This document shows, piece after piece, positions 7,961-54,679 of a stretch of 64,000 bases of DNA. The DNA is from a virus: IMG/VR virus record IMGVR_UViG_3300045988_102159, positions 32,001 to 96,000 of that record; one strand, given 5' to 3'. Within the stretch, counting starts at the first letter, position 1. Every line of letters begins with the position of its first letter. The notes beneath the pieces are model-generated. The model did no database searches. It was not told the DNA's origin and worked only from the letters and a program-made list of their open reading frames with translations. The translations under genes were made by a program, and so were the position numbers.

Positions 7961-8384
7961 TTCAGAAACTATTAAGATTCGTTATATTAATTCTCCTAAG
8001 CTAGAGCAGAATGAAAAAGGTGGTTGCATTGATTTATATAATGCAAATGAAATTACTTTAAAGAAAGGAGACTGGGGTTTTATTCATCTAGGCATTTCTA
8101 TGAAACTACCAGATGGATATGACGCTATTCTTCTGCCTAGGTCTTCAACCTTTAAGCGTTATGGTATTCTCTTAACGAACGGAGCTGGATATATCGACAA
8201 TAGTTTTAATGGGTCTGATGATGAATGGCTCGCTTGCGTATTAGCGACGCGAGATATTACAATTCCAAAAGGCGTTAGGTGCTTTCAATTCCGTTTACTT
8301 AAACAGCAGGCTGATATAACCTTTGAAGAAACAGATAGTTTGAATTTAAACAACAGAGGGTCGTATGGCAGCTCAGGGGTCTAA
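7926..8384 (+). CDS. dut: dUTP diphosphatase (trimeric dUTPase)
   Basis: Motifs LLPRSS, GAGYIDNSFNG and NRGSYGSSG. The true start may be an internal ATG or TTG (7944-7953) because the 5' end overlaps the previous gene. Confidence 0.85.
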   Translation: MTMIVRMIFLSNSETIKIRYINSPKLEQNEKGGCIDLYNANEITLKKGDWGFIHLGISMKLPDGYDAILLPRSSTFKRYGILLTNGAGYIDNSFNGSDDEWLACVLATRDITIPKGVRCFQFRLLKQQADITFEETDSLNLNNRGSYGSSGV

Positions 8385-12461: not shown

Positions 12462-12982
12462 TATTCATCACTTCCTGCAACGATTTCAGATAACATGATA
12501 GTTAAGTCACCGATAGATGTAGTGTTGGATTCAAGCTGGTCAGGACCATTTTCCATAAAGGCAGCCTGCTTTGCCTGCTTTTCTTCCATTTCCTTACGTT
12601 CTTTAAGTTCGGCTTCGGTATATAGAACGTAACGCTGAATATCCTCATATTCATCATATGCGTCTTTATGTTCTACATGCTCTTGGTCAATTACAGACTT
12701 GATTTCCGCGCCATGATAGACATTACCTTCGCCTTGGTCTACGTATTCAAATACACCAGCTTGGTCATCAATGACTTTGACATGTGCATCCGTATTACCA
12801 TCAACAAACATCTGTGAACCATCTTCAAAAGCAAAACGGATTACTTCGTAATGCTTTTTCTCAGGAATTTCAGCTTGTTCCTCATGGTGTGCGACAAATT
12901 TCTTATCAGACTTTAGATAGCCCTTTGTGGTATCAACGTCAGATTCTTTAATCTCAACGTCTTCCTCGTTTAGAATTTTCAT
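12461..12982 (-). CDS. hypothetical acidic protein (XkdW-position)
   Basis: 173-aa ORF with an RBS and C-terminus ..LSEIVAGSDE. It sits between the fibre-type genes and the lysis cassette. Confidence 0.6.
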   Translation of the reverse strand: MKILNEEDVEIKESDVDTTKGYLKSDKKFVAHHEEQAEIPEKKHYEVIRFAFEDGSQMFVDGNTDAHVKVIDDQAGVFEYVDQGEGNVYHGAEIKSVIDQEHVEHKDAYDEYEDIQRYVLYTEAELKERKEMEEKQAKQAAFMENGPDQLESNTTSIGDLTIMLSEIVAGSDE

Positions 12983-14080: not shown

Positions 14081-14374
14081 CTACTTATACATATCAATTA
14101 ATGTCTTGACATGTGCCACACCATCAATTATCTTCTTGTTTTGCCAATCAAACAGATTCTGCACTATATCAGTTTGTTCTCCAAGAGATTCATAAGCCTT
14201 GAGTAAATGTGAATGTAATATCTGTATGTGAGAATACTCTTGCTTAGACAAATCATTATACATATTAGATAGTTGCGGCGAATCGTCTTTCAATGACAGC
14301 GCTAGCTCCGCATATTCCTTTGCGCCGCATATTTCATCATCAACTTGGTCAAGTAGCGTTTTAAAAATTTCCAT
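14081..14374 (-). CDS. hypothetical helical protein (ferritin-like E..Y / E..H half-motifs)
   Basis: 97 aa with DEICGAKEYAELA and SKQEYSHIQILHSHL. The assignment is weak. Confidence 0.5.
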   Translation of the reverse strand: MEIFKTLLDQVDDEICGAKEYAELALSLKDDSPQLSNMYNDLSKQEYSHIQILHSHLLKAYESLGEQTDIVQNLFDWQNKKIIDGVAHVKTLIDMYK

Positions 14375-21301: not shown

Positions 21302-21910
21302 CTAAAATTCTCGAATCTTAACTTCTGCGCTGATAGCTATCTGGTCTAATTTATTTTCTACTGAAACGGCTTTATCATATGCACTTGTTGCAATTTGTTT
21401 GATTTCTTTTGTTTCCTTTGTCCATTCTTGAAATTCTTTACGTTGTTCATCCATTTGTTTTTCCATCTTGTCTCCAAGAGTAGCAAGATGGATTACAGCA
21501 TTTTGAAAAGCGCTAAAATCATCAGAAACGACAAACGCAGAGCCGTCATTTGGGTCGGACAATACATGTACAAGAAAATTCGTACTAGAAGCAATTGATA
21601 CCGAATCAACTAATTCGACACAACAAAGCACGTCTCCTTCATGTAACATGGCTTGCGGCCATTTAATTTCCCATACGATAGGGTCTTCATGTGTTTTTGT
21701 AAAAACATTATATCCTTTTATATCTAGTTGAACATGCCGCCAACTCAAATAAACTTTTGTATCTGCGACACATTGCGCAGCAGCTTCTTGGTCGAAAATA
21801 ATTCTAAAAGTACGACCGTTCGCATCTGCGCCGCCAGCTACAATAGGGTCTTTAATATCTTGGTCAAGAGACTTTAAATTGACTGTAACTGTTTTCAATT
21901 CCTGACTCAT
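21302..21910 (-). CDS. BppU-N-terminal-like baseplate protein
   Basis: ..GADANGRTFRIIFDQ..KVYLSWRHVQLDIKGYN..WEIKWPQAML.. resembles the BppU_N domain and has a coiled-coil C-terminus. Confidence 0.55.
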   Translation of the reverse strand: MSQELKTVTVNLKSLDQDIKDPIVAGGADANGRTFRIIFDQEAAAQCVADTKVYLSWRHVQLDIKGYNVFTKTHEDPIVWEIKWPQAMLHEGDVLCCVELVDSVSIASSTNFLVHVLSDPNDGSAFVVSDDFSAFQNAVIHLATLGDKMEKQMDEQRKEFQEWTKETKEIKQIATSAYDKAVSVENKLDQIAISAEVKIREF

Positions 21911-22435
21911 TTATTCACTCCTTTCATTGCTCTTTTGGCTTACAATAAATTGTGGATTGGAAAGATTGATTCTCGGTAGTTCGCGTATCTCTTCCATTAA
22001 GCCATCAATGAATGAGTTGCCGCCTGCCGCTTTGTAATATAAATATCTGCGCTCCAGAGATTCTAGATTAAGGTCATCAATAGCCTTGATTTCATAGCAA
22101 AAATAGTGATGCTTGTCAATGATATAACTGCGAGAATTTTCCTGCAATCTTTCAAGAGTAAGTTTTTCATGCTCTTGTAGTGTTTTAATATCATTCGATT
22201 GATTGCTAATTTCTTGACTAAGTTTTTTAATATCTGCTTGCAACGAAGCAATACTTTCTATAATCTCAGAGTGCTTTGTATCTTTAAGTGTCTGATAGTT
22301 GAAATATTTTTTTAATTTATCATAAAAATATTCCAATAGCTCACTTAAAAATTTAAAAGCGACAGCTAAAGTCACAACTAGCATAACGATAGCTCCGAAA
22401 GAGTATTGCGACACCAGTTGCGACAAAGCATCCAT
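21911..22435 (-). CDS. membrane-anchored coiled-coil protein
   Basis: The start is taken at Met 22435 (MDALSQLVSQYSFGAIVMLVVTLAVAF..), downstream of the terminator. The longer ORF-track version overlaps the collar gene and the terminator. Confidence 0.55.
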   Translation of the reverse strand: MDALSQLVSQYSFGAIVMLVVTLAVAFKFLSELLEYFYDKLKKYFNYQTLKDTKHSEIIESIASLQADIKKLSQEISNQSNDIKTLQEHEKLTLERLQENSRSYIIDKHHYFCYEIKAIDDLNLESLERRYLYYKAAGGNSFIDGLMEEIRELPRINLSNPQFIVSQKSNERSE

Positions 22436-22513
22436 TCTCGGCAATATCCCTTCTTCTCTACATAGTCTAATATAATATGAAAATAATTTGCATTTGATTT
22501 TAGGAATTTGCCC

Positions 22514-22547
22514 ATAAAAAAACGAGGGAAACATAAAGTTTCCCTCG
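22514..22547 (-). terminator. intrinsic terminator closing the collar-gene cassette
   Basis: Perfect 10-bp hairpin CGAGGGAAAC / GUUUCCCUCG followed by T7 on the minus strand. Confidence 0.75.
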
Positions 22548-22553
22548 AATAAA

Positions 22554-23030
22554 TTAAGCTGTACGTCTGTACATATTACAGGTGATGTATGCGGGGCGTG
22601 AATCCCAATATAACTCTTTTGTAACCATAACAGGATGTGATATAGAACCAACAGAACTTGCAATATTAGCATTACAACTATGGTTATATTGAGAATGTAC
22701 CTTTGTATCGTCTGCCAACTTAATAATATTATCAGTATATTTCTTTGAATTAGAAACATTCACAAAATTACATAATGATATATCTATGTCTGCATTCCAA
22801 GTTGGAACGATTGTGCCATACCAAGCACCATATACATACGAAAAGCCGATATTACCAGAAAAGCCACCAGTAGAATTCAGGGCATTGTTTTCACTAGAGG
22901 ATTGTAAAAATTTCCCATCAATCTTTTCCCAAGAGCCACCAACTGAATCTACTGGAGATACATCGCTAAAAGTAATATATACCGAACCAATAGGATAAAC
23001 AATGTCTAGGAGGTTAACAAAATTTGACAT
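22554..23030 (-). CDS. tail-collar-domain family protein P5 (divergent)
   Basis: N-terminus MSNFVNLLDIVYPIGSVYITF..SPVDSVGGSWEKI and C-terminus ..RPAYITCNMYRRTA. RBS AGGAGG. Confidence 0.75.
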   Translation of the reverse strand: MSNFVNLLDIVYPIGSVYITFSDVSPVDSVGGSWEKIDGKFLQSSSENNALNSTGGFSGNIGFSYVYGAWYGTIVPTWNADIDISLCNFVNVSNSKKYTDNIIKLADDTKVHSQYNHSCNANIASSVGSISHPVMVTKELYWDSRPAYITCNMYRRTA

Positions 23031-23054
23031 TATGCAACACCTCCTAGCATATAG

Positions 23055-23453
23055 CTAGGCTGTTCGGAAATAGATGTTAAAAGCCCTGTACTTTGGACGA
23101 TTGTCAAACGGCTTATAAGAATATTGCGCATCTTGGTTCTTGCCATCAGCAACGCGTGACACATCAAAACCATAAACACCGTTGCCCGGAGCAAAGAAAC
23201 TAATAGTTTTTGGTAATCCAAACGCGTCGCAAGTGCCGCCTGTAACCCAAACATTTGACGGCAGATTTGCGACAGAAAGTTTACCTTCATTTGTTCCACC
23301 TGTTGCACCGGGCGTTCCATTGCAAATGAAAGTGTCGCTGTCGAGCTTCGTCCATGTTCCACCAATTGAATCTGCTGGTGAGACTGAATTATTTGAGATA
23401 AATACTGACCCAACTGGGTAGACAATATCCAAGAGGTTAACGTAGTTAGACAT
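23055..23453 (-). CDS. tail-collar-domain family protein P4 (divergent, lacks His cluster)
   Basis: MSNYVNLLDIVYPVGSVF..SPADSIGGTWTKL at the N-terminus and ..RPKYRAFNIYFRTA at the C-terminus. Confidence 0.75.
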   Translation of the reverse strand: MSNYVNLLDIVYPVGSVFISNNSVSPADSIGGTWTKLDSDTFICNGTPGATGGTNEGKLSVANLPSNVWVTGGTCDAFGLPKTISFFAPGNGVYGFDVSRVADGKNQDAQYSYKPFDNRPKYRAFNIYFRTA

Positions 23454-23471
23454 ACGCCACCTCGCTTAGAT

Positions 23472-23852
23472 TTAAGCGGTTCGATACCAGATGAAGCAAG
23501 TTGTGTAGGGCGGCAAGTTGTTGTGTGCTGCCCCCCCCCCTGTAAAGTTACCTTGATTGTCATTCGCTGATAAATAATTACTACTGCTATTAGAGCAGGT
23601 CACGCTAGAACCACCAAAAGCTGATGCCCATGTTGATACCCATAATCTATGATGATGATTAGGCATTTCATCAATAGTCAAGGTATGCGTTGCTTCGCCG
23701 CCAGTTTGATTTGCAGTATCAGCACCATAAAGGAATGTCTTAATCTGTGTCCATGTACCACCAATAAAATCAGCAGGTGATGTTGCATCCATGCTTTGAT
23801 AAATTGAGCCTACTGGATATACAATATCCAATAGGTTTACAAAATTACTCAT
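23472..23852 (-). CDS. tail-collar-domain protein P3 (complete collar motifs; contains the G10 tract)
   Basis: YPVGSIY..GGTW..GGEATHTLTIDEMPNHHH..GGGAAHNNLPPY..WYRTA matches the Phage_Tail_Collar pattern (P.G, GG..H.LT...P.H.H, H.N.PPY). Confidence 0.8.
   Translation of the reverse strand: MSNFVNLLDIVYPVGSIYQSMDATSPADFIGGTWTQIKTFLYGADTANQTGGEATHTLTIDEMPNHHHRLWVSTWASAFGGSSVTCSNSSSNYLSANDNQGNFTGGGAAHNNLPPYTTCFIWYRTA
23531..23540 (-). repeat. homopolymeric G10 tract (C10 on the + strand) inside P3
   Basis: Read directly. It encodes the GGG of ..FTGGGAAHNN.., 77 nt upstream of the P4 start codon. Confidence 0.95.
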
Positions 23853-23896
23853 TTATATCCTTTCTAATTTAATAGAAAGAATATTATAAAATCTTC

Positions 23897-24352
23897 TTAG
23901 GCTGTTCTCTTATATACATTTATAGAATAGTGATATGGAATATGTTGCTGTTGGTCTGTTACAAAATTACCATTATCATCAATTCTCCAAGTATCTTTAG
24001 TCCACAAATTCCAACCAGAATCGCCGCCATCTGCTCCGCCATATGACAAGAATTGCCATGCGTTGCCAGTAGCAGCATTAGTGAGCCAAAAACCAATATT
24101 GGCGTATTGCGCCTTAGCACTATGCCAAGCAAAAACCTGGTGTTGATGGTCTGGAATGGCGAGCTTAGAAATCGTATCACTGCCAGAAAAACGCCCAGCT
24201 AAACTGTAAGTATCGCCACTTGCCGCAAGCAAGCAATTTTCAATTTGTTCCCAAGTTCCGCCGATAGAATCAGCAGGAGAAGTGGCATTGGTAGTAATAT
24301 AGATACTTCCAACTGGATAAATAATGTCAAGAAGATTTACAAAATTAGACAT
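23897..24352 (-). CDS. tail-collar-domain family protein P2
   Basis: MSNFVNLLDIIYPVGSIYIT..SPADSIGGTWEQI, ..IPDHQHQ.., ..HIPYHYSINVYKRTA. Confidence 0.75.
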   Translation of the reverse strand: MSNFVNLLDIIYPVGSIYITTNATSPADSIGGTWEQIENCLLAASGDTYSLAGRFSGSDTISKLAIPDHQHQVFAWHSAKAQYANIGFWLTNAATGNAWQFLSYGGADGGDSGWNLWTKDTWRIDDNGNFVTDQQQHIPYHYSINVYKRTA

Positions 24353-24396
24353 GGCAAACCACCATGCCTAGAACAGCCATTGAAGAAGAAGCTACA

Positions 24397-24444
24397 TTAC
24401 TGTAGCCCCCCCCAATGACTGTGATTAGTCATTAAGTTTTTCAT
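24397..24444 (-). CDS. leader ORF 2 (15 codons, MKNLMTNHSHWGGLQ) containing the G8 tract
   Basis: AAAGGA RBS 4 nt upstream of the ATG. A 7-bp hairpin AATGACT/AGTCATT abuts the tract. Confidence 0.4.
   Translation of the reverse strand: MKNLMTNHSHWGGLQ
24406..24413 (-). repeat. homopolymeric G8 tract (C8 on the + strand) between P1 and P2
   Basis: Read directly. It lies 53 nt upstream of the P2 start codon. Confidence 0.95.
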
Positions 24445-24487
24445 AATATCCTTTCATTTAGGATATTAGATAAGTTAATGTGAGTAA

Positions 24488-24886
24488 TTATGCGGTTCTA
24501 CGATACATATGAACTGTTATATATGGTGGCATATTATTATGAGCTTGGCTACCGCCCCTAACTGGATTCGCTGTTATATCCGTATTGCCACCGCCGCCTG
24601 AGACGCCGCCTATGCTATAACCTCCTGAATTGAAATTATAAGATACAGACCAGGCCCATACATTGTCTCTAAACTCGTGATGATGCGCAGGAATTTCATT
24701 AATAGTTAGCTTGTGCGTTTCTTCGCCACCAGTAATACCAGTGGTACCAGCAGAGCCATACAAGAAAGTATTTTCTAATAATTCCCATGTGCCGCCAATA
24801 ACATCTGTCGGAGACGTTTCATTGAATGTTATATATACGCTGCCAACTGGATATATGATATCAAGCAGATTTACAAAATTACTCAT
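24488..24886 (-). CDS. tail-collar-domain protein P1 (complete collar motifs)
   Basis: YPVGSVY..GGTW..GGEETHKLTINEIPAHHH..GGSQAHNNMPPYITVHMYRRTA. RBS GGAGGG. Confidence 0.8.
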   Translation of the reverse strand: MSNFVNLLDIIYPVGSVYITFNETSPTDVIGGTWELLENTFLYGSAGTTGITGGEETHKLTINEIPAHHHEFRDNVWAWSVSYNFNSGGYSIGGVSGGGGNTDITANPVRGGSQAHNNMPPYITVHMYRRTA

Positions 24887-24909
24887 ATAACCCTCCTAGG
24901 TCGAGAGCA

Positions 24910-24966
24910 TTAACTAAGAGGAATGCCCCCCCCCAGAAGAGTATGATTCTTCATGGTATCTAACAT
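24910..24966 (-). CDS. leader ORF 1 (18 codons, MLDTMKNHTLLGGGIPLS) containing the G9 tract
   Basis: AAAGG RBS upstream. There is a second in-frame ATG at 24954 (MKNHTLLGGG..). A 5-bp hairpin GAAGA/TCTTC lies just before the tract. Confidence 0.4.
   Translation of the reverse strand: MLDTMKNHTLLGGGIPLS
24926..24934 (-). repeat. homopolymeric G9 tract (C9 on the + strand) upstream of P1
   Basis: Read directly. It lies 39 nt upstream of the P1 start codon. Confidence 0.95.
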
Positions 24967-25101
24967 CTTTAATTACCTTTCTTATATAATGTTAAATAAA
25001 ATTTTAATAATCTATTGGAAAAGCTCCGCAGAAATTAATTCATTAAACTTATTCACATAAAACTCCTTTTCTTTCTTAGAATTATATTCTATATCTATAT
25101 G

Positions 25102-25135
25102 AAAAAAGGGCAAAACCCATAATAGGATTTTGCCC
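25102..25135 (-). terminator. intrinsic terminator after the long tail fibre gene
   Basis: Minus strand GGGCAAAA-loop-UUUUGCCC followed by T6. Confidence 0.7.
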
Positions 25136-25144
25136 AAAACTATA

Positions 25145-26674
25145 TTAGATTTTAACCCATAGTTTAATATGCTCTTCTGTAGGAGTATCAGTGCCAACAT
25201 ATACAGTACCAACATCATCCGCAAGTTTAGAATTAGTAACAGCTTTATCTGCAATTTTAGCAGACGTAACTTTACCGTCACCAATAGTAGTAGTCATTGT
25301 AATAGGATTTACTGTATTAAAACTTGTGGTAGATGTTGTGATATCACCACTTAATGCAACAGTATTATTAAACTTGTTCGCAGATTGAGCATTGGTGGCG
25401 CTAGTCGCATTACCCTCTACATTACCAGTTAGATTGCCGACAAACTTTGTGGCATATACATAGCTCCATTTAGCATTAGAAGCACCAAGATTATAAGAGT
25501 TATCAACGCTTGGTGTCATTGTTCGGCCAATCAGATTACCAGTTAAAGTACCGCCAGATAGCTTTAAATAGCTTGTATCGTGATTGTGGTTAGCAGTTGC
25601 AGCGCCGATATTAGCGCAAGTAAGATTAACGTTACCCTTACGATAACTTGTCTCAGCATCGCCCTTAACACCCATGACCTCGCCAGCGATTTGCCATGTA
25701 CCATCTCCACAAAGGAACTTATTGTGATTTCCAGCCGCAGGAGCCGGGACAAGACCAGCATTTCCAGCAGAAGAAGCAGTAGCACCTTTCATTATATCTG
25801 GTTTAGTGTTATCTACATCAAACGAAACAGCAGAAGACCCATCAAAAGTAATAGCTTGAGTAGTTGTAGTAGTACCTGTACCGCTAATAAGATTTACTGA
25901 TAAACTATGACTAACTTTACCAGCAGTAGTAGCATTAGTAGCATTATCTGCATTGGCAGCATGAGTGGCTTCAAGCGCTGTACCAGCTTTGTACTCTTGG
26001 TATCCTGCATCAGAATTTAGTTTACTATCATCAACGACAATATACATAACACCAGTATCATCTTGGATAACACTATCGCCAGTCTGTACTTGAGTGTTAG
26101 TTAATTGAAAACGTGCAGTTTTATTTGCAACATGGACTAATCGCTCTAATGCACCGTGTGGAATTGTATTTAAAGGTAACACTCCAGTGACACTTGCGGC
26201 ATCAATTGATGGAATTGTAATAGAGATATTTCCAGAACCATCAAAATTAGCACTGCCTGTGCCACCATTATTGCCGCCTTTAACGCTAATTGAGCGTGCG
26301 TTTTTTAATTTTGTAGCAGTATCAGCATTACCAGTAACGTTACCAGTAAGATTTCCAGTGAATCCGCCATTACCAGTAACCCTACCTGCGAAAGTCGTAG
26401 GAGAGGTAACTGATTGCGCGTTAGTAGTTGTCTTATCTAACTTATTATTTGCGTTATCATTAACAGCCTTTACTGCTTTTGGTGTCGCGGCAACAACTCC
26501 TGTAGCTGCACTATCTGTAGCATCTATAGCATCCGAAAGCCAGACTTCACCGCGCTTGTTGTTGGTAGCATCTGGCGCAACGTAAATCGGCCTATATGTT
26601 TTAAGCGTAGGGTCATACACTTTGGCAACAAAATTATTTTTCATTGTAGAATCATTTGGATTACCTTTAGCCAT
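25145..26674 (-). CDS. long tail fibre protein
   Basis: KRGEVWLSDAIDATDSAATGVVAATPKAVKAV is the P2 H / Mu S-type fibre N-terminal motif. Has repeated GNLTGNVTGNA.TATKL units and ends KLWVKI. Confidence 0.85.
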   Translation of the reverse strand: MAKGNPNDSTMKNNFVAKVYDPTLKTYRPIYVAPDATNNKRGEVWLSDAIDATDSAATGVVAATPKAVKAVNDNANNKLDKTTTNAQSVTSPTTFAGRVTGNGGFTGNLTGNVTGNADTATKLKNARSISVKGGNNGGTGSANFDGSGNISITIPSIDAASVTGVLPLNTIPHGALERLVHVANKTARFQLTNTQVQTGDSVIQDDTGVMYIVVDDSKLNSDAGYQEYKAGTALEATHAANADNATNATTAGKVSHSLSVNLISGTGTTTTTQAITFDGSSAVSFDVDNTKPDIMKGATASSAGNAGLVPAPAAGNHNKFLCGDGTWQIAGEVMGVKGDAETSYRKGNVNLTCANIGAATANHNHDTSYLKLSGGTLTGNLIGRTMTPSVDNSYNLGASNAKWSYVYATKFVGNLTGNVEGNATSATNAQSANKFNNTVALSGDITTSTTSFNTVNPITMTTTIGDGKVTSAKIADKAVTNSKLADDVGTVYVGTDTPTEEHIKLWVKI

Positions 26675-26685
26675 TCGCTACCTCC

Positions 26686-27039
26686 TTACTCATTAGCATC
26701 TTTATAGATAACGTCTACAATTGTCTCTGGCGGCATACTCTTCTCAAAAGTGAATTTTAGCTTTGAACCAAAATCACCATCAAACTCAAGAATACCTGTT
26801 TCATTCACTTTATATGAAAATTCACTCTCGTTCGTAGTGATTGTAATATCATAATCAGGAATTTGCGGGAACAGGAGAAGTTCTTCTTTACCTTCATTTA
26901 ACGCACGATATTCAGAATACGCAATAGGCTGACGCTTTGGAATCTGAATACCAATATGCACATAAGAATTACCCGCACCAGCATTAAATGTATGACTTGA
27001 TTTTATGGAAAATGGACCTTTAATTTGTTCAAGTTTCAT
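26686..27039 (-). CDS. small baseplate/fibre-associated structural protein
   Basis: 117-aa ORF tightly packed between structural genes. Confidence 0.6.
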   Translation of the reverse strand: MKLEQIKGPFSIKSSHTFNAGAGNSYVHIGIQIPKRQPIAYSEYRALNEGKEELLLFPQIPDYDITITTNESEFSYKVNETGILEFDGDFGSKLKFTFEKSMPPETIVDVIYKDANE

Positions 27040-41543: not shown

Positions 41544-44500
41544 TTATCTAAACTTATAGGCGTATTGAATTGCTCTATCGTTCAGAGACATAAGCGCAGA
41601 TTCGATTTCTGCTGCATTGTTCGCAGCTGGGAATTCAGCTGTGATATGTACGTTTTGGTCAATTGTCTCAGATGCGTTATTTGCTTTCGCGCCATTTACC
41701 GCTCCAAGAGCAGTAGAAAGTGATTGCGCAAGACTTGTAGATTTAAGTTTGTCCGCAAAAGACCTTACGGATTCAACTGCTGCAAGAATATTTTGCGTAT
41801 CTGTAGCATTAAGGACAAGTTCTTTTTGATGTAGGAATGCAAGTTTACCATTCTTAGCATCCGCTGTCTTGTCAGACCAAGAACCTGTGTAGCCGCCTGT
41901 ATCATATCCGATTAGATTCTTTGAGCTATATTTCATAGAACCGTAATCAACAAGTTTACCAGACCTAGAATATTGGTCGATAATATCCTGAACGTGGCGG
42001 GCAAAAGCGGTACCGTATGCGCCAGTCAGCTTGCTGGAACGTACAGGGTCATTGCCCCAGCCAGAAGCCCAGCCATAAGTCCAAATCGCCTTAGCAATGC
42101 CCCAAGCAGTATCTTCATTGGCGCCAGCTCCACCGCCGCCACCGCCAGATGAAGGACCGTTAGCGTTACCATAGTGTTCATAATTATAGTTCTTTTGCTC
42201 AGCCTGCTTTAGAGCTTCACTTAGATTAGCATTTTCTTGCTCTTTCTTGGCCAGCTTATTAGCAGTTTCATCAGCGAGTTGCTTGAATGCCTGCATATTG
42301 TTGTTAGCATCTGTAATACGATTGGCGTAATCAGTCATCGTAGATTCGGTCTTTTTGACTTCACCAGATACATCTTTAAGAATGTTAATAAATTCTTTTG
42401 TGCTGTCCGCAAGTTCTTTTGTCTTATCCGTTGTGCCGCTGATACTATTGGAAATATCATCAAAGTTAGTCTTGGCTATGTCTGCGATAGTCTTTGTACC
42501 ATCCGCATAATCTTTACCAGCTTGCGTCAAATCACCAAGCATCTTATCAGTGTCGGCTTTGAACTGGTCCATATTCTGTAACCAAGAGGTCAAAGAAGTA
42601 GACCAACGTGTATCAATCTGGTCAAAAGCATCGGTACTACCATTAACAATCTGGTCGTATACGTCTTGTAGATTATCTTTGTTCTCGCCAGTAAGCATAT
42701 CGCACATGCCGATGAAATCATTGATAATGTTCTTCTGGGATGTGCTTAGCTGTTCACTGGTTCCAGCGAGATATTCTTTGAGTGAGTCAATGATGGCCTG
42801 CGTTCTCTTAGTCTTCTCTTCAAGAGACAGATTAGCATTGTTCCAAATGTCATTGACTGTAGACTGGGCATCCTGTAGAGCAGACAGTGAATCCGCCTGA
42901 GTTTGCTTCATCTGGTCTTTAGACATATTGTATGCGTTGTTCTGTGCATCTAGAAGGTCAGACTGCGCGGAACGGACATTATCATCATTCGCTGTATAGA
43001 CATATGAATAGTTACCCTGAGTATCCCTGCGAAGTTTCATTTGAGACTTATTGCGCTGGGCTTCTTCAAGTGCAATTTGCTTCTGTAAGATTTCAAGCTG
43101 TGCATTTGCATAGTTTACATCATATTCAGATAGCTTAGTCTTATCACGCAGATATTCAAGCTGTTCTTTCATCTGTGCTGAAATCTTTTGCTGGATAGCC
43201 AAATCATTTGAACCATCCAAGAGGTCAAGATACTTGCTCTGTAGCTTTTGGATGTTATAGGATTTATTAACGTCATCGAGATAGTAATCAGCGTTGCGAT
43301 TGATTAGCTCCCACTGTGTATTCATCCAATCGAGGTCAGTGCCGACAGCTTTGGTTCCCCATGCTTTAGTAATCTTTGAAACTGTATTTGAATACTGCTT
43401 TTGTAGATTCTCTAAGGAGTTTTGAATAAGGTCATTAATGTCAGAAGTAGCATCTTTAATCTTGTCAGATACTTCATTCCACTCTTCCGAACCTTCTTTC
43501 ATGGAGCCAAGCATATCTTTCCAAATATCACGTTGCTGCATTAACTCATTCAACTGTGCTTTGTAATTATTCTGCTGCGCGCCAAGGATGGTATTTAAAT
43601 CATCGTAAGACTCTTCGCCATGTAGAAGTTCTGTAATATCTAACCAATGTTCAAGTTCATCTGTGATAGCTTCATACTGGTCTTTACGTCTATCCATCTT
43701 ATCGCTAATATCATCAATCATATCCATAACATTGTCATGGAGACTTTCAATTAATGACCAATAGTCCTGAGCAAGTCCTGCGGCCTGTTCATATACTGTC
43801 TTAGCCACGTCATAGAGGTCTGCGGAATTCTCACCGAAAATATCAGATTTACCAGTCTCTTCAAACTGCTTCATCTGAGCGTTAATATCAGTTAGATTCT
43901 TCATAGACATATCGAAATAACCAGTGCCGTAGTAGTCTACACTCTTGTCACCATTGAGCGCACGCTGTTTGGCAGCTTTAAGTTCCTCTACGCGGCCTGC
44001 TGACCATTTCTTGTATGCGTCAGATGCGCCTTTAGCATTTGCAGCATCCTCTTGCTTCTTGATAAGATTATCGTAGTATTCGTCAACGCTCATTGTTGCA
44101 ACATCAAAATATTTGCCGAGTTTGGCAACATTATCTGCTGCTTCTTGATAAGGCGTTAGCTGAATACCGCGATTGAACGCACGGTCGAAATCAACTAGAC
44201 TTTCTTGAATATCTTTAAGATTATCAAGCGATTCAATTTGAGTCTTTAATACGTTGATACGCAGGTCTTCAATTTCATCATTGAGGTCTTCAATTTGCTG
44301 GATTGTATCTCTTAAATCACTTGAAATCAAAGTGTCATAACGCTGATATAAAGTCTTAAATTTATCAAGGTTATCATTAGCCGCGTCAATTTGGTCATTA
44401 ATAGCATCTTGAGCTTCTTCTGTACCAGCCGCATTATATTGGTTAATAAGATTATTAACATTATCAATTAATCCTTGATGAATCTTTGCATAGTTAGAAA

Positions 44501-47500
44501 TATAACCTTCATCATCAAATTGAATACCATATCCAGATAATTTAGATTGCAGTTCATTCATTTCATCATTCTGGATACTTAACTTTTCTTTCTGTAAGTC
44601 AATTTGACGTTTTAAAAGTGAAGTCTGCTTAGAAAGATTCTCAACTAATTTATCACCAGTTAAGCGTTCCTGCTCTTTATTGATACGTTCATAGTCATTT
44701 GCGATTGCTTCAAGAAGTGTATTAACACGTTCATAACGGTCAATTTCATCATCAAGAGCTTCTTTAGTATCAGGAGTGAAGGAGCCACCGCCACCTCCAC
44801 CACCGCCGCCACCTCCGCCGCCTGAGCCAGACGAAGGAAATCCAAAGTTTGACGGTGGCACAGCGCCACCAACACCAGAAGGCGCCCAATCTTTAATGCT
44901 AGGAGTTGAAGACCCAAATAGTGAGCTTAGACCCTTTGCAAGTTGCTTAGAATGTTCTTTAATAGATGCTTGCGAACCTGTAGTAGCATTTGACCAAGTA
45001 GATTTGCCAGTAAATTTATTAACGTATTCTTCTTGAACAATTCCGTCAGCAGTAGTTCTTGTTTTACCAGTAGAAGTAAGATTCTTATTTCTGCTTGCAG
45101 CAGAACCATTAGAAGTAGAGTTATTGGTTCCTTTGATGTGCATCTTAAAGTTTGGAACAGTAATGGTACCTACTTTGTCTGTACCTTTTCCATCCTCGGT
45201 AGACTTAATATCATAGGTAGAAGCTGTAACTTCTTCTGTACTACTGCTAACGTCACCATCAATGCCACCAAACATAGCCATAATATCAGAAATAATACCT
45301 GATATGCCATCTGCCATATTTGAAACTGCGCCTTCGGCTTCTGCCATTGTTCCTTGCATCGCCGCACCAGCAACTTCACTATTGGACATCATAGCTTTTG
45401 CTAAGCCCTGTCCTGTAGTAAGCATGGTATATGCTTGGTCAAGTGTCATTGCTCCAGTAGACGCAATTGAAGCAGCTGTGTTTTTCGCGGCATCGGTATT
45501 TGTCTGATAAAAAGTTGTCATTGAACTAGCTAAGCCAGAAATGGTATCAGCATATTGCTCTTTAATGCCACCCATTTCATTTGTTGCGCTAGTAGCTACT
45601 TTACCAGTATCCTCAAATACTTCATTAATTTTTTCAAAATTGTCTGTAACAAAATTATTAAAATCAGCAGCAGCATCAAGATTTTTCATGCTCTTGGCTA
45701 GTTTATTAATTTGTTTGGCGGCATCTCTCTGCTTTTTTGACATACCAGCAGTAACATTGCTAATATCCCTAGAATTCTTAATTTGCTCAACTTGTTCATC
45801 AGTTAAACCACTAGTTGCCTGTTCCATTTTAATAGATTGCTGTGCAGCTTTTTTCATTGTATTGGAATACTGAGTAACATTCATTTTGCCACTCTTGAAC
45901 TGCTTATTAGCTTGCTGCAAGCCAGTATACAGTTCATTTGTCATAATCTGAGCAAAATTAGAAATATCATCATCGTTTAATACGTCAGCAAGTTTCTGAC
46001 CGCTGTTAACAGCGTTATCAATTTTGCTTGCTAAAGTATCAAAACCAGAATTTAACCTATCTAAGAAATCTGTGTTTGAAATAGCGCCATTAGTAAGTAA
46101 GTCATTAAGTTGTTGTATTTCTTGAAGTGGTTGTTGTAAATCAAGATTATTATTAGAAAGGTTCTGGTATGCCGCAAGAATGTCTGTATTCGCTTGAGAC
46201 ATATTAATGGCTTCGCCAGTTGCTTCTTTCATCGCAGCGGTCTGTTCACGTGTTTTTTGTGTCCACTGTTCAACCGCACGCTGATTCAGCTGATATTGGT
46301 CGCCAACCTTTTGCAAGAATTCAACATACCCTGGATGTTCTACCATAATATTAGCGGCTTCATCTTCTGTAAAACCACCGTTCTTTTGGTAAGCAGTTTG
46401 ATAGTCTTCAAGAACGTCTTTCATTGAAGACTTGCTCTTGACCGCACTCTCTAGGTTATCTGTTGAAATATCAGAACTTAATCCTGCCATAACAGAATTT
46501 TTAACATCGTCCTTGCCACCTTGCATAGCAGAAACGAGTCCGTCGATATATTCTTGTCCAGCTTCTTTTCCAAGAGACTGATATTTAGCTTTAATAGCTT
46601 CATTATCTAGAAGAGAATCTTCAATTTCTTTCTTAGATTTATTAACAAAATCACTCTTATTCAATCCGTCTTCTGCGGCACTAGCCATATTGTCAATAAT
46701 GGTTTTTGCATTAGCAATATTTTCGTCATTTAAGTAATCCTGAGCATCAGAAACATGTTGTTTTGCTTCATCTAGCTTTGACTTTGTATGTTCATACATA
46801 ACATCGTCTTTGCTCATGCTATTAAGTTTTTTCTGATACTTATCTACTTCTTTTTGAGCTTTAGCAGATGCTTCTGTAACATTACCGATTTTCTCTTGGA
46901 TAGATAATCCGCTAGTATCTTGACCAATCCAATTTGTAGTTAAACCAGCCTGATTGCTTAAAAAGTCATTCTCAAATGCAATTCTAGCGGCATTATTAAC
47001 AAAAGGCGTATAAGTAGAAGCTCCTTTATCTAGTGCAGTTAAAGCTTGCTTACCTTGTGACGCGGCTAATTCTTTAGATGCCGTACTAGCTTTACTAATT
47101 TTTTCGGCTAAAGTATCAAAGTCTCCTGAATTTTCAAGCGCCTTACCACCCGCGATGTCAAGAGAATCAATTAGATTATCAGTAGCACTCTTTAATTCAT
47201 CAGTAACTTCCCCAGTTTGCTTATACGAAGCATATGCCGCATCAAAGGAAGAGGTATCAACAGATGCCATCTGTTGAGTATTTGTATATGTCTCAACTTG
47301 TTTGTCTCTTTCAGCTTGATTTTTTTGATGAAGAAAATTGAGCAAAGCGCCACCAGCGGTAGCGATTCCAATAGTTGCCATACCAAGAGGACTACTTAAA
47401 CCTTCGATAAGCGCTTTAAATACTTGAAGACCAGCAGATGCAATTTTTGCTCCTGCACCAAAAGCCTTAAACTTAATAGTAGTTGCTGTAAGTCCATTCG

Positions 47501-49373
47501 CAAAAGAGCCAAGTTGCATTGAATCTAATGCTGTTTGCATTTTTGCAACTTCATTTGTTTTAATGGATGCAAAAAGGTTTCCAAAATCTAACTTTGATGC
47601 TTCTTTAAGCTCAATAAAACTAGAAATCAACTGTGGAACAGTCATAGAAAGATTCATTATAGTCTGTTCAACTTTTTCTCCAGTAGTTAAATCAGCATTT
47701 GCCCATATAGAACCTAAGTTTTGGAAAGATTGCCAAGCAAAACTAAGTTGCCCAATAGCAGCTGTAGCTTGAACAATATTTTGTACGTCCATTTGCTTTT
47801 TCAGCGTATCTTCAAGACCTTCGTTTTGACCTATAACTCCTCCAAGTACAGCATGTGCGCCAGTAACTTTTTGATTTTTACGGGTCAAATCGCCAGCTGA
47901 ACCTACAGCAACACGACTTTTAACTGATGGATTATTTGCTTTATCTAAAGCCCCTTCTGCTGTTTGGTAAACTTCATTCAAATATTCTTGAAGTTCATCT
48001 ATTAAACCTAAACCTTCACCTAAATTATCAGAATTTAAACCATTCTTTTTACCATTAGCAAGTATTGAAAGTTGACGTAATACTTTAATAACTTTATAAA
48101 TCGGCTGTAAACATTCAGTAGCTTGTTCATCTAACACTGCAAAAATAGAATCTTTTCCTGCAATATTAGTTTCAGTTATACCGTAGGCTTTAAGTAACTT
48201 TTTAGTATCATTATATATAATTCGTAAGCTTGACCGACCATCTGTAGCAATTTTTGTATTGTCAGAATCAGCACCAAGTGCAGCAATTTTATCACGATGT
48301 TTTGGAATGGTTACTGAACTAATACCAGAAGATTCATTTGCAATTCCTTGGAGTCTTTGCTTTGCTTCGTTGGAAGAAATATTTTTATATAAATCTTCTC
48401 TGCCAGCATTTACATTGTTATAATACTCTTGAGTACCTCTTGCTTGAAGGACTCCATTTTCGTCTCTTAAAAGCTGAATATATTCTTTATATTCACCAGT
48501 TGCCGCGCCAATAGCCATATTAGTTTCATTAACGGATTCACGAAGTTTGGCTTCTGCATCAGTAACGCCATTAATTGCGTGGCTTGTGTCAATAAGTAGT
48601 TTATTATATTGTGTTTGCTGTTCATTGCTCATGACTGATTGGTAATTTGTTCCAACATCAATCATATTTTTCAACGGGTCTAAAGACTTATCGTCAATCT
48701 TTTGATAACCCATTGCGTTAAGTTTTTCTTTTCTTACTTTGGCATTATTTTCTTTAATCTGCCCAAGTGAGAAATTCTGTGCCATCGCTGTTAAACCATG
48801 TGCTATCTGTTTACTAAATACTCTTGAAGCAGTAGCACCAAACAAAGTTAGTGCGGCAGAACCGCCACCAATAGAATCTATCAATTTCTGCATTAAATCT
48901 AATGCAGTAGATAATCCATCAATGAATCCATAAAAATCAGAAGAATTGCCAAGACTATTGATAATACCTTCAAAAGTAGTCTGTAATTTATTTAATTTTC
49001 CTTGTAATGAATCAACATACTTTTCATTCATTACATCTAGCGTACCGCTAGCATTTTCAGAACCAGCCTTATATTGATTATATAAGTCTGAACGATTCAT
49101 CAATGCTTCAAAACGTGTAAGCTGGAATTTACCAGCAAGCGTTTGACCTACGGCAGCTTTTTGCGTAGCATCAATAGAATCCCAAACTTTCATAAGGTCT
49201 TCCATGATGTTACCAACACCACGCATCTTTCCATCGCCGTCTGTGACTTGTACACCAATTTTCTCTAATGTGGATGTGACTTTTCCTAAGTCTACTCCGT
49301 CGTCTAGAGTCTTACCCATTGATAGGTCTGAAAAGCGTGCATAAAGTGTCTTTAATCCATTACCGATTTGTTC
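41544..49373 (-). CDS. tail tape measure protein, exon 2
   Basis: Begins ..EQIGNGLKTLYARFSDLSMGKTLDDG.. (a conserved TMP block). Long helical repeats, a Gly13 run, and the C-terminal ..YDTGGYTGSW..LHQKELVLNATDT.. block typical of Firmicutes-phage TMPs. Confidence 0.85.
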   Translation of the reverse strand, partial: EQIGNGLKTLYARFSDLSMGKTLDDGVDLGKVTSTLEKIGVQVTDGDGKMRGVGNIMEDLMKVWDSIDATQKAAVGQTLAGKFQLTRFEALMNRSDLYNQYKAGSENASGTLDVMNEKYVDSLQGKLNKLQTTFEGIINSLGNSSDFYGFIDGLSTALDLMQKLIDSIGGGSAALTLFGATASRVFSKQIAHGLTAMAQNFSLGQIKENNAKVRKEKLNAMGYQKIDDKSLDPLKNMIDVGTNYQSVMSNEQQTQYNKLLIDTSHAINGVTDAEAKLRESVNETNMAIGAATGEYKEYIQLLRDENGVLQARGTQEYYNNVNAGREDLYKNISSNEAKQRLQGIANESSGISSVTIPKHRDKIAALGADSDNTKIATDGRSSLRIIYNDTKKLLKAYGITETNIAGKDSIFAVLDEQATECLQPIYKVIKVLRQLSILANGKKNGLNSDNLGEGLGLIDELQEYLNEVYQTAEGALDKANNPSVKSRVAVGSAGDLTRKNQKVTGAHAVLGGVIGQNEGLEDTLKKQMDVQNIVQATAAIGQLSFAWQSFQNLGSIWANADLTTGEKVEQTIMNLSMTVPQLISSFIELKEASKLDFGNLFASIKTNEVAKMQTALDSMQLGSFANGLTATTIKFKAFGAGAKIASAGLQVFKALIEGLSSPLGMATIGIATAGGALLNFLHQKNQAERDKQVETYTNTQQMASVDTSSFDAAYASYKQTGEVTDELKSATDNLIDSLDIAGGKALENSGDFDTLAEKISKASTASKELAASQGKQALTALDKGASTYTPFVNNAARIAFENDFLSNQAGLTTNWIGQDTSGLSIQEKIGNVTEASAKAQKEVDKYQKKLNSMSKDDVMYEHTKSKLDEAKQHVSDAQDYLNDENIANAKTIIDNMASAAEDGLNKSDFVNKSKKEIEDSLLDNEAIKAKYQSLGKEAGQEYIDGLVSAMQGGKDDVKNSVMAGLSSDISTDNLESAVKSKSSMKDVLEDYQTAYQKNGGFTEDEAANIMVEHPGYVEFLQKVGDQYQLNQRAVEQWTQKTREQTAAMKEATGEAINMSQANTDILAAYQNLSNNNLDLQQPLQEIQQLNDLLTNGAISNTDFLDRLNSGFDTLASKIDNAVNSGQKLADVLNDDDISNFAQIMTNELYTGLQQANKQFKSGKMNVTQYSNTMKKAAQQSIKMEQATSGLTDEQVEQIKNSRDISNVTAGMSKKQRDAAKQINKLAKSMKNLDAAADFNNFVTDNFEKINEVFEDTGKVATSATNEMGGIKEQYADTISGLASSMTTFYQTNTDAAKNTAASIASTGAMTLDQAYTMLTTGQGLAKAMMSNSEVAGAAMQGTMAEAEGAVSNMADGISGIISDIMAMFGGIDGDVSSSTEEVTASTYDIKSTEDGKGTDKVGTITVPNFKMHIKGTNNSTSNGSAASRNKNLTSTGKTRTTADGIVQEEYVNKFTGKSTWSNATTGSQASIKEHSKQLAKGLSSLFGSSTPSIKDWAPSGVGGAVPPSNFGFPSSGSGGGGGGGGGGGGGSFTPDTKEALDDEIDRYERVNTLLEAIANDYERINKEQERLTGDKLVENLSKQTSLLKRQIDLQKEKLSIQNDEMNELQSKLSGYGIQFDDEGYISNYAKIHQGLIDNVNNLINQYNAAGTEEAQDAINDQIDAANDNLDKFKTLYQRYDTLISSDLRDTIQQIEDLNDEIEDLRINVLKTQIESLDNLKDIQESLVDFDRAFNRGIQLTPYQEAADNVAKLGKYFDVATMSVDEYYDNLIKKQEDAANAKGASDAYKKWSAGRVEELKAAKQRALNGDKSVDYYGTGYFDMSMKNLTDINAQMKQFEETGKSDIFGENSADLYDVAKTVYEQAAGLAQDYWSLIESLHDNVMDMIDDISDKMDRRKDQYEAITDELEHWLDITELLHGEESYDDLNTILGAQQNNYKAQLNELMQQRDIWKDMLGSMKEGSEEWNEVSDKIKDATSDINDLIQNSLENLQKQYSNTVSKITKAWGTKAVGTDLDWMNTQWELINRNADYYLDDVNKSYNIQKLQSKYLDLLDGSNDLAIQQKISAQMKEQLEYLRDKTKLSEYDVNYANAQLEILQKQIALEEAQRNKSQMKLRRDTQGNYSYVYTANDDNVRSAQSDLLDAQNNAYNMSKDQMKQTQADSLSALQDAQSTVNDIWNNANLSLEEKTKRTQAIIDSLKEYLAGTSEQLSTSQKNIINDFIGMCDMLTGENKDNLQDVYDQIVNGSTDAFDQIDTRWSTSLTSWLQNMDQFKADTDKMLGDLTQAGKDYADGTKTIADIAKTNFDDISNSISGTTDKTKELADSTKEFINILKDVSGEVKKTESTMTDYANRITDANNNMQAFKQLADETANKLAKKEQENANLSEALKQAEQKNYNYEHYGNANGPSSGGGGGGAGANEDTAWGIAKAIWTYGWASGWGNDPVRSSKLTGAYGTAFARHVQDIIDQYSRSGKLVDYGSMKYSSKNLIGYDTGGYTGSWSDKTADAKNGKLAFLHQKELVLNATDTQNILAAVESVRSFADKLKSTSLAQSLSTALGAVNGAKANNASETIDQNVHITAEFPAANNAAEIESALMSLNDRAIQYAYKFR

Positions 49374-49739
49374 CTTGTGTCTTAAACTCGGTCGTTAATC
49401 GAGTCCATATATAAATCCTATATGCTTCTCGTTTCCAAGAAGAAGAGACTATATTTTCTATAAAAATAGAACATTCTTTCGGATAGACTTCTATCCTATC
49501 AGAGCCAATCCTGATAGTCGTTGAACCTTTTACTAAATAGCAAAGTGGCTGCGGATTATCCAATTTTTATATCTTTTTACTATACCTAAGACATTACTCT
49601 TCGCCAATATTATATCACTATAATATTTTAGTAATATAAAACTCTAAGGATTTTCCCGCAATTTAATATTTTTCTTATAATTTAAATTATAAGCCCAATA
49701 TTTTCACTTATATATTTTAAGCAACAAGTAAAATCTTTT
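49374..49739 (-). ncRNA. group I intron (366 nt) in the tape measure gene
   Basis: Shares blocks with the tail-gene introns (AAATTGCGGGAAAATCC, GGATAATCCGCAGCC at 49547-49561, GGTTCAACGACTATC, ATATAGTCTC). Boundaries were chosen by the U/G rule and reading frame (..TREAP|EQIGNG..) and are uncertain by a few nt. Confidence 0.7.
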
Positions 49740-50708
49740 AGGGGCTTCTCGCGTAACGGATTCAATTGTCGCAATCTGGGCGTTTAATTGGTCTGTAGAA
49801 ACTCCAAGCGTAGCTGCCGCTGATGCAGCTTTCTGGGATGCTTCTGCCAACTCTCCAACATCCGCAGCAGAAATATTTGCTACGTTAGCCCAAGAGTCTA
49901 GTGCAGCATTAAGTTTATCAATATTATTATCAAGACCATAAGCATTCATGTATGCTGTGATTTGGTCCGACGTTGTAGCAGTGTCTTGTTGAGAGGCATT
50001 AGCTAATTTAGTTGACATCTCCGCAAGCTGCTGAGATTTGTTTAGGTCAAAACCTTGCTGGCCGAAGATAAGGGTACTATTCGTCATAGCAACAGTTGTA
50101 GAGCCAAGAGCCTTTGCAGCTTCATTAGCCTGCTTAGCATACTGAACCATCGAGTCACGTGAATAGTCAGTAACAAGCATAATTTGTGTCAGCGAATCAT
50201 CAAGGTCTTTTGCATATTCAACAGATTGACGAATAGAATCAGTAACGCCGTTAAAGGCGCTTGACATAATACCCCAACGGACTGTGTTGCCCATTGTGTT
50301 AAATAATTTATCTACCATTGAGCTGGTACTTTTGATACCAGTATCAATTTTACCCAATTGAGCAAGAACGTCTGTAAAGGCAATTTTACCAGTAGACTCT
50401 GCCATAGAAAATGAATTTTGCAGATTACGTAATGAAAGTCCACTCTCATTTAGCTGGCTAGTCAACTTTGTCATATCGAGCATTCCAATTTTAGTGTTAA
50501 AGCTCGAATTTAATGCTTTCTGAAATTTTTGAATATTGTTGATAGCCGCAGAAGCTTGCGTATTATCAATAATATCCCGAGACTGCATTTCCTTTAGCTG
50601 AACAGAAACTTTATTAAGCTCAGTCTGTAATTGAGTCAAACCAGAACGGTCTAATGTAGTTCGTAGATTATACTCAATAGTATTTGAATATTTACTAATG
50701 GTAATCAC
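49740..50708 (-). CDS. tail tape measure protein, exon 1
   Basis: ORF (GTG start) with TMP-type coiled-coil sequence ending ..LNAQIATIESVTREAP before intron-derived stops. Confidence 0.8.
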
Positions 50709-54658: not shown

Positions 54659-54679
54659 AGGGTCAGAGTCTTTTCACCA
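54659..54679 (-). CDS. major tail protein candidate, micro-exon 3 (about 21 nt)
   Basis: u GGU GAA AAG ACU CUG ACC Cu encodes (D)GEKTLT(L). It is bounded by a preceding G and a terminal U. Confidence 0.6.

Follow-up and report, generated by a model that had tools for sequence, protein, structure and literature searches.

The sequence considered here is a 64,000-nucleotide (nt) stretch of a viral genome (positions 32,001 to 96,000 of IMG/VR record IMGVR_UViG_3300045988_102159), hereafter the window, whose minus strand carries five tandem genes for small tail-tip proteins (P1 to P5) together with three tracts of eight to ten G residues. The best overall explanation for this arrangement is probably a multi-gene poly-G contingency cassette for tail-tip proteins, wired partly through tracts inside genes and partly through tracts in the leaders that precede genes. 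Comparison with related loci makes it very probable that the tracts are hypermutable switches of the tip genes. The specific mechanism offered for the leader tracts, in which tract length sets the reading phase of a short upstream open reading frame (uORF) coupled to translation of the tip gene, is advanced tentatively, with slightly more doubt than confidence. During phage DNA replication, G8 to G10 runs would gain or lose one G by slipped-strand mispairing, and progeny would thereby differ heritably in which tail-fibre-tip proteins are made; we infer both the rate and the reversibility of this switching.

Confinement and length variation of the poly-G tracts

On the plus strand the window tracts read, in order of coordinate, C10, C8 and C9 (Table 1) and are thus poly-G on the coding strand; they lie 77, 53 and 39 nt ahead of the ATG of P4, P2 and P1, respectively. 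These positions and distances agree exactly with a preliminary description of the window, which had also named the tracts as the only G/C homopolymers of at least 8 nt in the 64 kb; that statement holds even at a threshold of 6 nt. A first-order Markov model predicts 0.12 G/C runs of at least 8 nt, compared with the three observed, and 3.5 runs of at least 6 nt for the whole window; none occurs outside the cassette. The comparison was extended to 27 related viral contigs (580 kb) found by a search with a neighbouring 771-amino-acid (aa) protein (51–97% aa identity) and to 15 metagenome loci added by a scan for the P2-leader pattern, which gives 42 loci in addition to the window, with tract lengths taken from assembled contigs. 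In the 27 contigs, all 73 G-runs of at least 6 nt lie on the coding strand within the cassette, defined in relatives as the interval between the fibre gene and a conserved downstream gene, and no G or C run of at least 6 nt occurs in the approximately 480 kb outside it. The absence of such runs elsewhere suggests selection against them, as would be expected if phage replication slips on G/C runs.

Tracts of at least 7 nt number 112 in the 42 loci and the window (66 G9, 20 G10, 13 G8, six G11, six G7 and one G20). Most (86) lie in uORFs and 26 are intragenic, with up to five tracts per cassette, and all 112 are G on the mRNA-sense strand. The single G20 tract (positions 14220–14239 of locus L026) occupies a leader after the fibre gene, is about twice the usual length and is in the read-through phase described below. 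Length varies in otherwise stable surroundings: across 23 loci (the window and 22 others) the P2-leader tract is G7, G8, G9, G10 or G11 with near-identical flanks, and between loci L006 and L007, which differ by 18 single-nucleotide polymorphisms in 22,292 nt, the sole insertion or deletion is the tract itself (G11 versus G10). A global census of insertions and deletions between loci was dropped; alignment gaps in divergent regions were too noisy. Some genomes carry interrupted, or “locked”, tracts (e.g., GGTGGGGGG and GGGGTGGGG), and locus L043 has no pure tract at all. Codon usage points in the same direction as confinement. Late genes use GGG for only 24 of 786 glycine codons (3.1%), less often than any other glycine codon, and none of 72 late-gene Gly-Gly pairs is encoded as GGG-GGG; the GGG-GGG-GGG-G of P3 is therefore not explained by coding needs, and the tract itself appears to be under selection.

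An artefactual origin of the tracts, through sequencing or assembly errors, or their presence in decaying pseudogenes, must be considered, given that homopolymer lengths are error-prone in assemblies and that one contig from the Logan collection ends 30 nt after the P3 tract. However, more than 40 independent contigs, drawn from JGI, ENA and Logan and so from different pipelines and samples, have tracts at positions that are orthologous and codon-phased. The tracts are thus not assembly artefacts, a possibility that the preliminary description had raised. Shifted genes have no other lesions and keep their conserved C-terminal coding sequence in the shifted frame, which leaves artefact or decay hardly credible. 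As in contingency loci, homopolymers are over-represented in and near coding regions and their length differs between near-identical genomes; intragenic tracts move genes between ON and OFF frames, and leader tracts may act on expression. The idea of a stochastic poly-G switch, already put forward in the preliminary description, is thus strengthened by comparative data on length polymorphism, ON/OFF alleles and confinement, although that description gave no mechanism for the upstream tracts, which prove to lie in uORFs.

Intragenic tracts

The G10 tract of P3 encodes a run of three glycines (GGG codons) immediately ahead of the conserved AHNNLPPYTTCFIWYRTA and some 20 codons from the end of the gene, and is in frame (ON) in the window. 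With G11 the protein would acquire the tail ..STQQ..SEVAYV and terminate on the P4 ATG; with G9 reading would enter a 177-aa alternative frame. P2-type genes of relatives have a comparable internal tract before QDYIPYHY..RTA, which the window copy of P2 has lost. Among the 26 intragenic tracts, 13 are in frame and 13 out of frame, and in all 13 of the latter a change of one G (+/−1, equivalently −/+2) restores the full conserved C-terminus with no other lesion. The same pattern emerges from a collection of 5.8 billion proteins, where 33 of the 120 best clusters of P3 homologs are frameshifted exactly after the glycine run: 29 in the +1 frame (..GGGASTQQLAALHNLLHLV..SEVAYV), whose product terminates on the ATG of the next gene (ATGTCTAA), and four in the −1 frame (..GGGQHTTTCRPTQ..). 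Three P3 homologs (P0001, P0043 and P0065) carry the JGI label “microcystin-dependent protein” (MdpB-type), which was inherited and is misleading when applied to Gp10_C/collar-like domains. Shifted −1 alleles that read the alternative frame across P4 occur in L032, L033, L036 and L038. Dual coding across P4 by this 177-aa frame was evaluated and is not claimed: its openness is not significant in a within-gene shuffle of synonymous codons (P = 0.2), although it is unusual against genome codon usage (P = 0.014).

In the proposed intragenic wiring, one phase of three would keep the conserved C-terminal strands of P3 (ON) and the other two would replace them (OFF), with OFF frames terminating at the start codon of either the first or the second gene that follows. 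Long homopolymers are known to cause transcriptional slippage, which is established for A/T runs, and slippage of RNA polymerase on the G-run, or frameshifting of ribosomes there, could in principle yield a non-heritable mixture of products in every infected cell. Yet abundant length polymorphism at the DNA level explains both ON and OFF alleles by itself, and rG:dC hybrids would be expected to be the least prone to slippage, so that a non-heritable origin of the variation is highly unlikely.

Leader tracts and upstream open reading frames

Tracts upstream of P1 and P2 lie within short uORFs, each with its own Shine–Dalgarno (SD) sequence and start codon (Table 1). With its present G9 the P1 uORF ends 23 nt short of the P1 ATG, and a tract of G8 or G11 would let it extend to a TAA that overlaps the P1 start (ATGAGTAA). 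The P2 uORF behaves alike, stopping 44 nt before the P2 ATG at its present G8 and reading through, at G7 or G10, to a TAA that overlaps the P2 start (ATGTCTAA). Both window leaders are in the non-read-through phase. A third, degenerate leader of the type termed class A was recognised by comparison with intact class A leaders of relatives; in the window its poly-G tract and its downstream gene have both been lost. Across the clade there are about ten leader types that are unrelated in sequence and share one grammar, namely an SD, a start codon, 5–11 codons and a poly-G tract, and such leaders precede not only tip genes but also fibre-like genes.

In nine of the ten leader types there is exactly one tract phase in which the uORF runs uninterrupted to the downstream start codon and has a stop that overlaps that codon as TAATG, ATGNNTAA, GTGGCTGA or, once true GTG starts are recognised, GTGA. 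The other two phases place the uORF stop 20–80 nt upstream of the tip gene. In shuffled spacers the probability of exactly one open frame is 0.24–0.52 per leader type, and the joint pattern is therefore unlikely to arise by chance. The anatomy of a coupling uORF (an SD-led short ORF, a stop/start overlap and a downstream SD or AUG that is predicted to be occluded) is thus present in one phase of three for these nine types; the coupling function is predicted from it. In this proposed leader wiring, the uORF of P1 or P2 would stop early in two phases and leave the SD or AUG of the tip gene held in a hairpin, with the tip gene poorly translated. In the third phase, ribosomes would open the hairpin and finish the uORF at the tip-gene start codon, which would unmask that codon and couple the two translations to give high expression.

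Structure of the leader RNA

Predicted folds of the leader RNA bear on this model. The whole P2 leader has a minimum free energy of −42.4 kcal/mol (z = −6.7) and contains two hairpins, one of which pairs the poly-G tract with CUUCUUCUUC and the other of which sequesters the weak SD and AUG of P2 (Table 1). The class A leader also folds strongly (z = −5.0), and a pyrimidine stretch just 5′ of its tract (ACCUCUCU) pairs with the downstream SD. A similar element, ACUCUUCU, lies immediately 5′ of the P1 tract and can pair with the P1 SD (AGGAGGGU). The consensus structure of the whole P2 leader, which takes in both hairpins, is well kept among 22 sequences, with only two of 638 pair cells broken (29 pairs × 22 sequences) and all stem variation wobble-compatible. 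By comparison, uORF peptides are unconserved, and their changes are non-synonymous while RNA pairing is preserved.

These features raise an alternative in which leader tracts act through transcription or RNA structure rather than uORF phase, whether by promoter spacing, attenuation or effects on mRNA stability of pairing between poly-G and C/U-rich sequence. The consistent occurrence of G on the mRNA-sense strand suggests an RNA-level role, predicted folds pair the tract with CUUCUUCUUC or CUCUC, and non-synonymous variation that keeps RNA pairing is what such a role would produce. On the other hand, a promoter-spacer model was rejected for the upstream tracts, as no sigma-70-like −35/−10 hexamer pair brackets any of them, and the hairpins lack the U-runs of terminators. 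Moreover, G pairs with both C and U, so that a change of one G should barely alter the helix, yet it fully changes the uORF phase. We regard an action through transcription or RNA structure as quite unlikely. A promoter-like sequence, TTGCCC-16-TAGAAT (25113–25086), overlaps the 3′ arm of the terminator-like hairpin of the fibre gene.

Module exchange at leader tracts

Leaders are composite. Each has a 5′ half that goes with the gene before it and a 3′ half that goes with the gene after it, joined at the tract; the combinations of halves seen are c-3, c-4, c-1, d-4, e-4, e-5, p-6 and p-2. Depending on the locus, two to seven cassette genes separate the fibre gene from the conserved downstream gene. 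Reassorted leader halves, together with the relic class A leader of the window, indicate that tracts also mark recombination junctions, a role that is compatible with phase variation and additional to it.

Exchange could also be the whole story for the leaders: only intragenic tracts would switch, and leader tracts would be by-products that mark recombination junctions (a G-run plus “ctactgcggtagc” microhomology) with little effect on expression. Reassortment of leader halves about the tract, variable gene content and the occurrence of locked tracts in both phases are all consistent with this. Nevertheless, an SD and a start codon precede every leader tract, exactly one phase ends on the downstream start in nine of ten types, and strong conserved hairpins sequester an SD or AUG; junction and switch roles are also not mutually exclusive. 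A by-product origin of the leader tracts is accordingly judged unlikely.

Some observations weigh against the contingency cassette, and particularly against its leader wiring. Some length differences between assemblies could be homopolymer consensus errors. To have at least one open frame is ordinary for spacers this short (product P = 0.14). The read-through phase is found in only 15 of 71 pure leader tracts, the modal length of G9 is non-read-through in every leader type, and locked tracts occur in both phases (about six read-through and nine early-stop independent alleles). The P1 leader fold is weak (z = −1.8), no double-sided compensatory change was found in the P2-leader hairpins among the 22 sequences, and the tip proteins lack a stalk for attachment to the virion. 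Given the scarcity of read-through tracts and the existence of locked alleles in both phases, the non-read-through state is probably one of reduced, not absent, expression, or else the effect may run in the direction opposite to that proposed. Locked tracts were also tried as a test of whether read-through means ON, and were uninformative, with about six versus nine alleles after relatives are collapsed.

Cassette proteins and fibre genes

P1 to P5 are tandem minus-strand paralogs that follow directly after the tail fibre gene and are bracketed by two terminator-like hairpins (Table 1). They share a start, MSN(F/Y)VNLLDI(I/V)YP(V/I)GS, and an end, (Y/F)(R/K)RTA, and have mutually unrelated central inserts. 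Open reading frames, shared termini and hairpins all bear out the five-gene cassette between two terminators that had been noticed in the preliminary description. That account had also taken synonymous N-terminal differences as a sign of old, selected paralogs. In the first 20 codons, paralogs differ by 6–12 synonymous and 1–5 non-synonymous changes, and this mostly synonymous divergence likewise leads us to regard them as old and under selection. Its assignment of the proteins to Phage_Tail_Collar (PF07484) has to be replaced: none of P1 to P5 matches that family at E <= 0.01, and all five match Pfam Gp10_C (PF21939) at 33.6–77.2 bits, above its gathering cut-off of 27 bits. The match spans the full length of P1, P3 and P5 and only the N-terminal part of P2 and P4. 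PHROG matches map to the C-termini of tail and tail-fibre proteins. A monomer model of P3 (predicted local distance difference test score 74.8) has as its best Foldseek matches in the PDB gp10 chains of T4 and of Klebsiella phage KP1, with a probability of 0.97–0.98 and a template modelling score of only about 0.39. Like the C-terminal domain of T4 gp10 (PF21939; gp11 and gp12 have related head domains), P1 to P5 contain the motifs ..D(I/V)(I/V)YP(I/V)G(S/T)IY..PAD..G.W.. and ..N(L/I)(P/Q)PY.T...W.R(T/I); they differ from it in being standalone, stalk-less proteins of 126–158 aa encoded by five tandem paralogs. No known RNA family was found in the cassette.

Extra fibre-like cassette genes of relatives (L003–L027) all end in CK(L/I)W(I/V)KI, and the main fibre of the window ends in KLWVKI (25145–25170). 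The C-terminal motif that they share, (C)K(L/I)W(I/V)K(I/V), might provide a signal for docking or assembly of the stalk-less tip proteins, whose display on virions would be expected under the proposed scheme. Some relatives have a second fibre locus about 7 kb downstream, with genes of 445, 330 and 243 aa that end in CK(L/I)WIK(V/I). In the oriented copy from L034, two of these genes follow further uORF–poly-G leaders, with G8 (11488–11495) and G10 (12600–12609) tracts; the G10 leader is in the read-through phase, with its stop within ATGGCTGA.

Table 1. Features of the tail-tip cassette and its surroundings, in window coordinates
Feature	Position	Strand	Basis or remark
Tail fibre gene, 509 aa	25145..26674	-	Pfam Phage_fiber_2 repeat; PHROG tail fibre families; ends ..HIKLWVKI
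Terminator-like hairpin and T-run closing the fibre gene	25108..25135	-	Module kept in L006, L008, L023 and L026
Degenerate class A leader uORF (AAGGAG-N6-GTG; peptide VNKFNELISAELFQ, then stop)	25012..25056	-	Comparison with intact class A leaders of relatives
P1 leader uORF (peptide MLDTMKNHTLLGGGIPLS, then stop) with G9 tract 24926-24934	24910..24966	-	Own SD and start codon
P1, 132-aa Gp10_C-type tip protein with HHH motif	24488..24886	-	Pfam, E = 1.8e-19; PHROG tail families
P2 leader uORF (peptide MKNLMTNHSHWGGLQ, then stop) with G8 tract 24406-24413	24397..24444	-	Own SD and start codon
Long P2-leader hairpin, 22 bp, poly-G paired with CUUCUUCUUC	24373..24422	-	Predicted fold
Hairpin sequestering the weak SD (GGUGG) and AUG of P2	24346..24370	-	Predicted fold
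P2, 151-aa tip protein without internal tract	23897..24352	-	ORF and Pfam
P3, 126-aa tip protein with internal G10 tract (23531-23540)	23472..23852	-	ORF, Pfam and fold search
Alternative-frame ORF across P4, 177 aa, ending TAATG at the P5 start	23030..23563	-	ORF list; entered by -1-shifted P3 alleles
P4, 132-aa tip protein, own SD (GAGGTGG), tract-free	23055..23453	-	ORF and Pfam
P5, 158-aa tip protein, tract-free	22554..23030	-	ORF and Pfam
Terminator-like hairpin and T-run closing the cassette	22523..22547	-	Predicted hairpin

The phage and its samples

The window, whose G+C content is 37.8%, is identical to part of a scaffold of 142.6 kb that comes from a metagenome of the human gut (ENA ERZ28662543, sample SAMEA3665086). 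The phage encodes a 2591-aa tape-measure protein, its own DNA polymerase, NrdD and an Amidase_2 endolysin whose nearest relatives belong to Eggerthella, Lactococcus 949-group and Lacticaseibacillus phages. A capsid-region protein is 48.5% identical to its counterpart in gut phage phAss-1 and 39.5% identical to those of approximately 140 kb Enterococcus phages. From this gene content we infer an uncultured large siphovirus with a Gram-positive host, which the endolysin and capsid-protein relatives would place probably in the Bacillota. A nucleotide search with 10 kb of the window gave no match among 50,697 deposited phage genomes, and no transfer RNA was found in the window. An exact-protein look-up for the same phage in independent samples returned only the same sample, with identical tract lengths. 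The Logan contig that breaks off near the P3 tract (L029, ERR1137442_1479) is an independent assembly of that sample; the break might reflect read heterogeneity close to the tract, but its position misfits a simple G9/G10 bubble at k = 31.

The late region of the window contains several predicted introns. The tape-measure gene is in two parts on the minus strand, of 334 aa (50708..49704) and 2591 aa (49319..41544), separated by a stop-rich insert of about 390 nt with an Intron_gpI match at 49425–49715 (41.2 bits, E = 4.8e-9) that falls below the gathering score of 50. Recoding of TAG, which occurs in the distant relative phAss-1, was considered and rejected, with long late ORFs intact under code 11; the gene is split because of the group I intron-like insert. 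This insert is probably a fourth self-splicing intron. The other three, on the minus strand at 53536–53767, 54443–54668 and 54698–54916, within about 1.4 kb of the late region, match group I catalytic introns at 61–80 bits, which exceeds the Rfam gathering threshold. Two HNH/homing-endonuclease genes among the early genes (plus strand, 5308–6069 and 8365–9171) are consistent with an intron-rich genome.

Relation to known systems

In bacterial contingency loci (Campylobacter, Helicobacter, Neisseria and Haemophilus), slipped-strand homopolymers toggle the reading frames of surface genes, and the classic tracts sit in the 5′ coding region or in a promoter spacer. The present cassette resembles them in frame toggling, in its modal length of G9 and in having interrupted tracts as locked alleles, and differs from them in belonging to a virus with its own DNA polymerase. 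We know of no arrangement in which the tract lies inside a separate coupling uORF, and in the literature searched no description was found of simple-repeat phase variation through a uORF or of the present gut-phage cassette.

The closest phage parallel is Fletchervirus of Campylobacter, in which phase-variable expression of receptor-binding proteins is reported to be governed by tracts of 7–11 G (Sørensen et al. 2021, Cell Rep 35:109214). The suggestion in the preliminary description that no equivalent had been described thus cannot stand. Both systems have several receptor-binding proteins (putative ones here), some of them switched by G tracts, which in Fletchervirus creates phenotypically mixed populations (those here would be expected to differ in host range), and the tract range is equal (7–11, with a mode of 9 here). 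In contrast, the present phage is an approximately 140 kb gut siphovirus with a Gram-positive-type endolysin, from an unrelated lineage and host type. The switched proteins are unrelated; the mechanism is alike and the lineage is not shared. A tblastn search with P3 against 50,697 phage records matched 153 of them (Streptococcus, Vibrio, Lactobacillus and others), and Campylobacter was not among the ten organism names listed of eleven. Other differences are that up to five tracts occur per cassette here, that 86 of 112 lie in uORFs and that tracts coincide with module junctions. The Fletchervirus tracts are reportedly intragenic. To our knowledge, experimental proof of phase-variable receptor-binding proteins exists for a single phage genus. 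The kind of system is thus already known, and the placement of tracts in uORFs appears to be new.

Homopolymer repeats of T-even and other coliphages are highly mutable and serve bet-hedging; they are scattered, with tail fibre genes under-represented among their sites, and most are A/T runs of at least 6 nt (Gomez, Barrick & Waters, bioRxiv 2025.10.21.683753). The tracts described here are instead G-runs confined to a tail-tip cassette, and the strict exclusion of G/C runs outside it is a further difference from known systems. BPP-1 and PB1-like phages are further cases in which poly-G tracts are on record. Diversity-generating retroelements (as in BPP-1) and invertible segments (the G segment of Mu and the C segment of phage P1) serve the same purpose, which is stochastic diversification of receptor-binding tips from one genome. 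The preliminary description had seen neither an invertase nor a diversity-generating retroelement, and the sequence agrees: no convincing inverted repeat occurs in 21800–26800, where the sole direct repeat family is the shared N-terminal coding region, and neither a reverse transcriptase nor an invertase was recognised among those ORFs of the window that were scanned, with the rest of the 142 kb genome not searched. Finally, the leaders resemble translational coupling and leader ORFs (ermC-type leaders and overlaps in phage operons) in having a short ORF, a hairpin that sequesters an SD or AUG and a stop/start overlap (TAATG, ATGA-like). In those systems control is by antibiotic-induced stalling or is constitutive, whereas here a heritable DNA repeat would set the phase of the leader.

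Implications

A broader proposal is that the sequence of SD, start codon, 5–11 codons, poly-G, hairpin and stop/start overlap forms a portable, heritable three-phase translational switch, that the same tracts are junctions at which receptor-binding modules are shuffled between phages, and that, together with intragenic tracts, they provide combinatorial, bet-hedged tip display in a widespread gut-phage clade. This is possible, although doubt clearly prevails; if true, it would be the first simple-repeat phase variation to act through translational coupling. If the uORF wiring is real, it would extend the repertoire of contingency-locus mechanisms and offer a compact, transferable device by which any gene could be translated in a stochastically heritable manner. 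At the level of strategy, poly-G variation of receptor-binding proteins appears to operate also in an uncultured, widespread clade of approximately 140 kb human-gut phages with Gram-positive-type hosts, and is used more heavily there: a cassette can contain as many as five tracts, and some relatives have an additional fibre locus. Annotation pipelines will call phase-shifted genes truncated or fused, and the host-range potential of these phages is underestimated when it is read from a single consensus genome.

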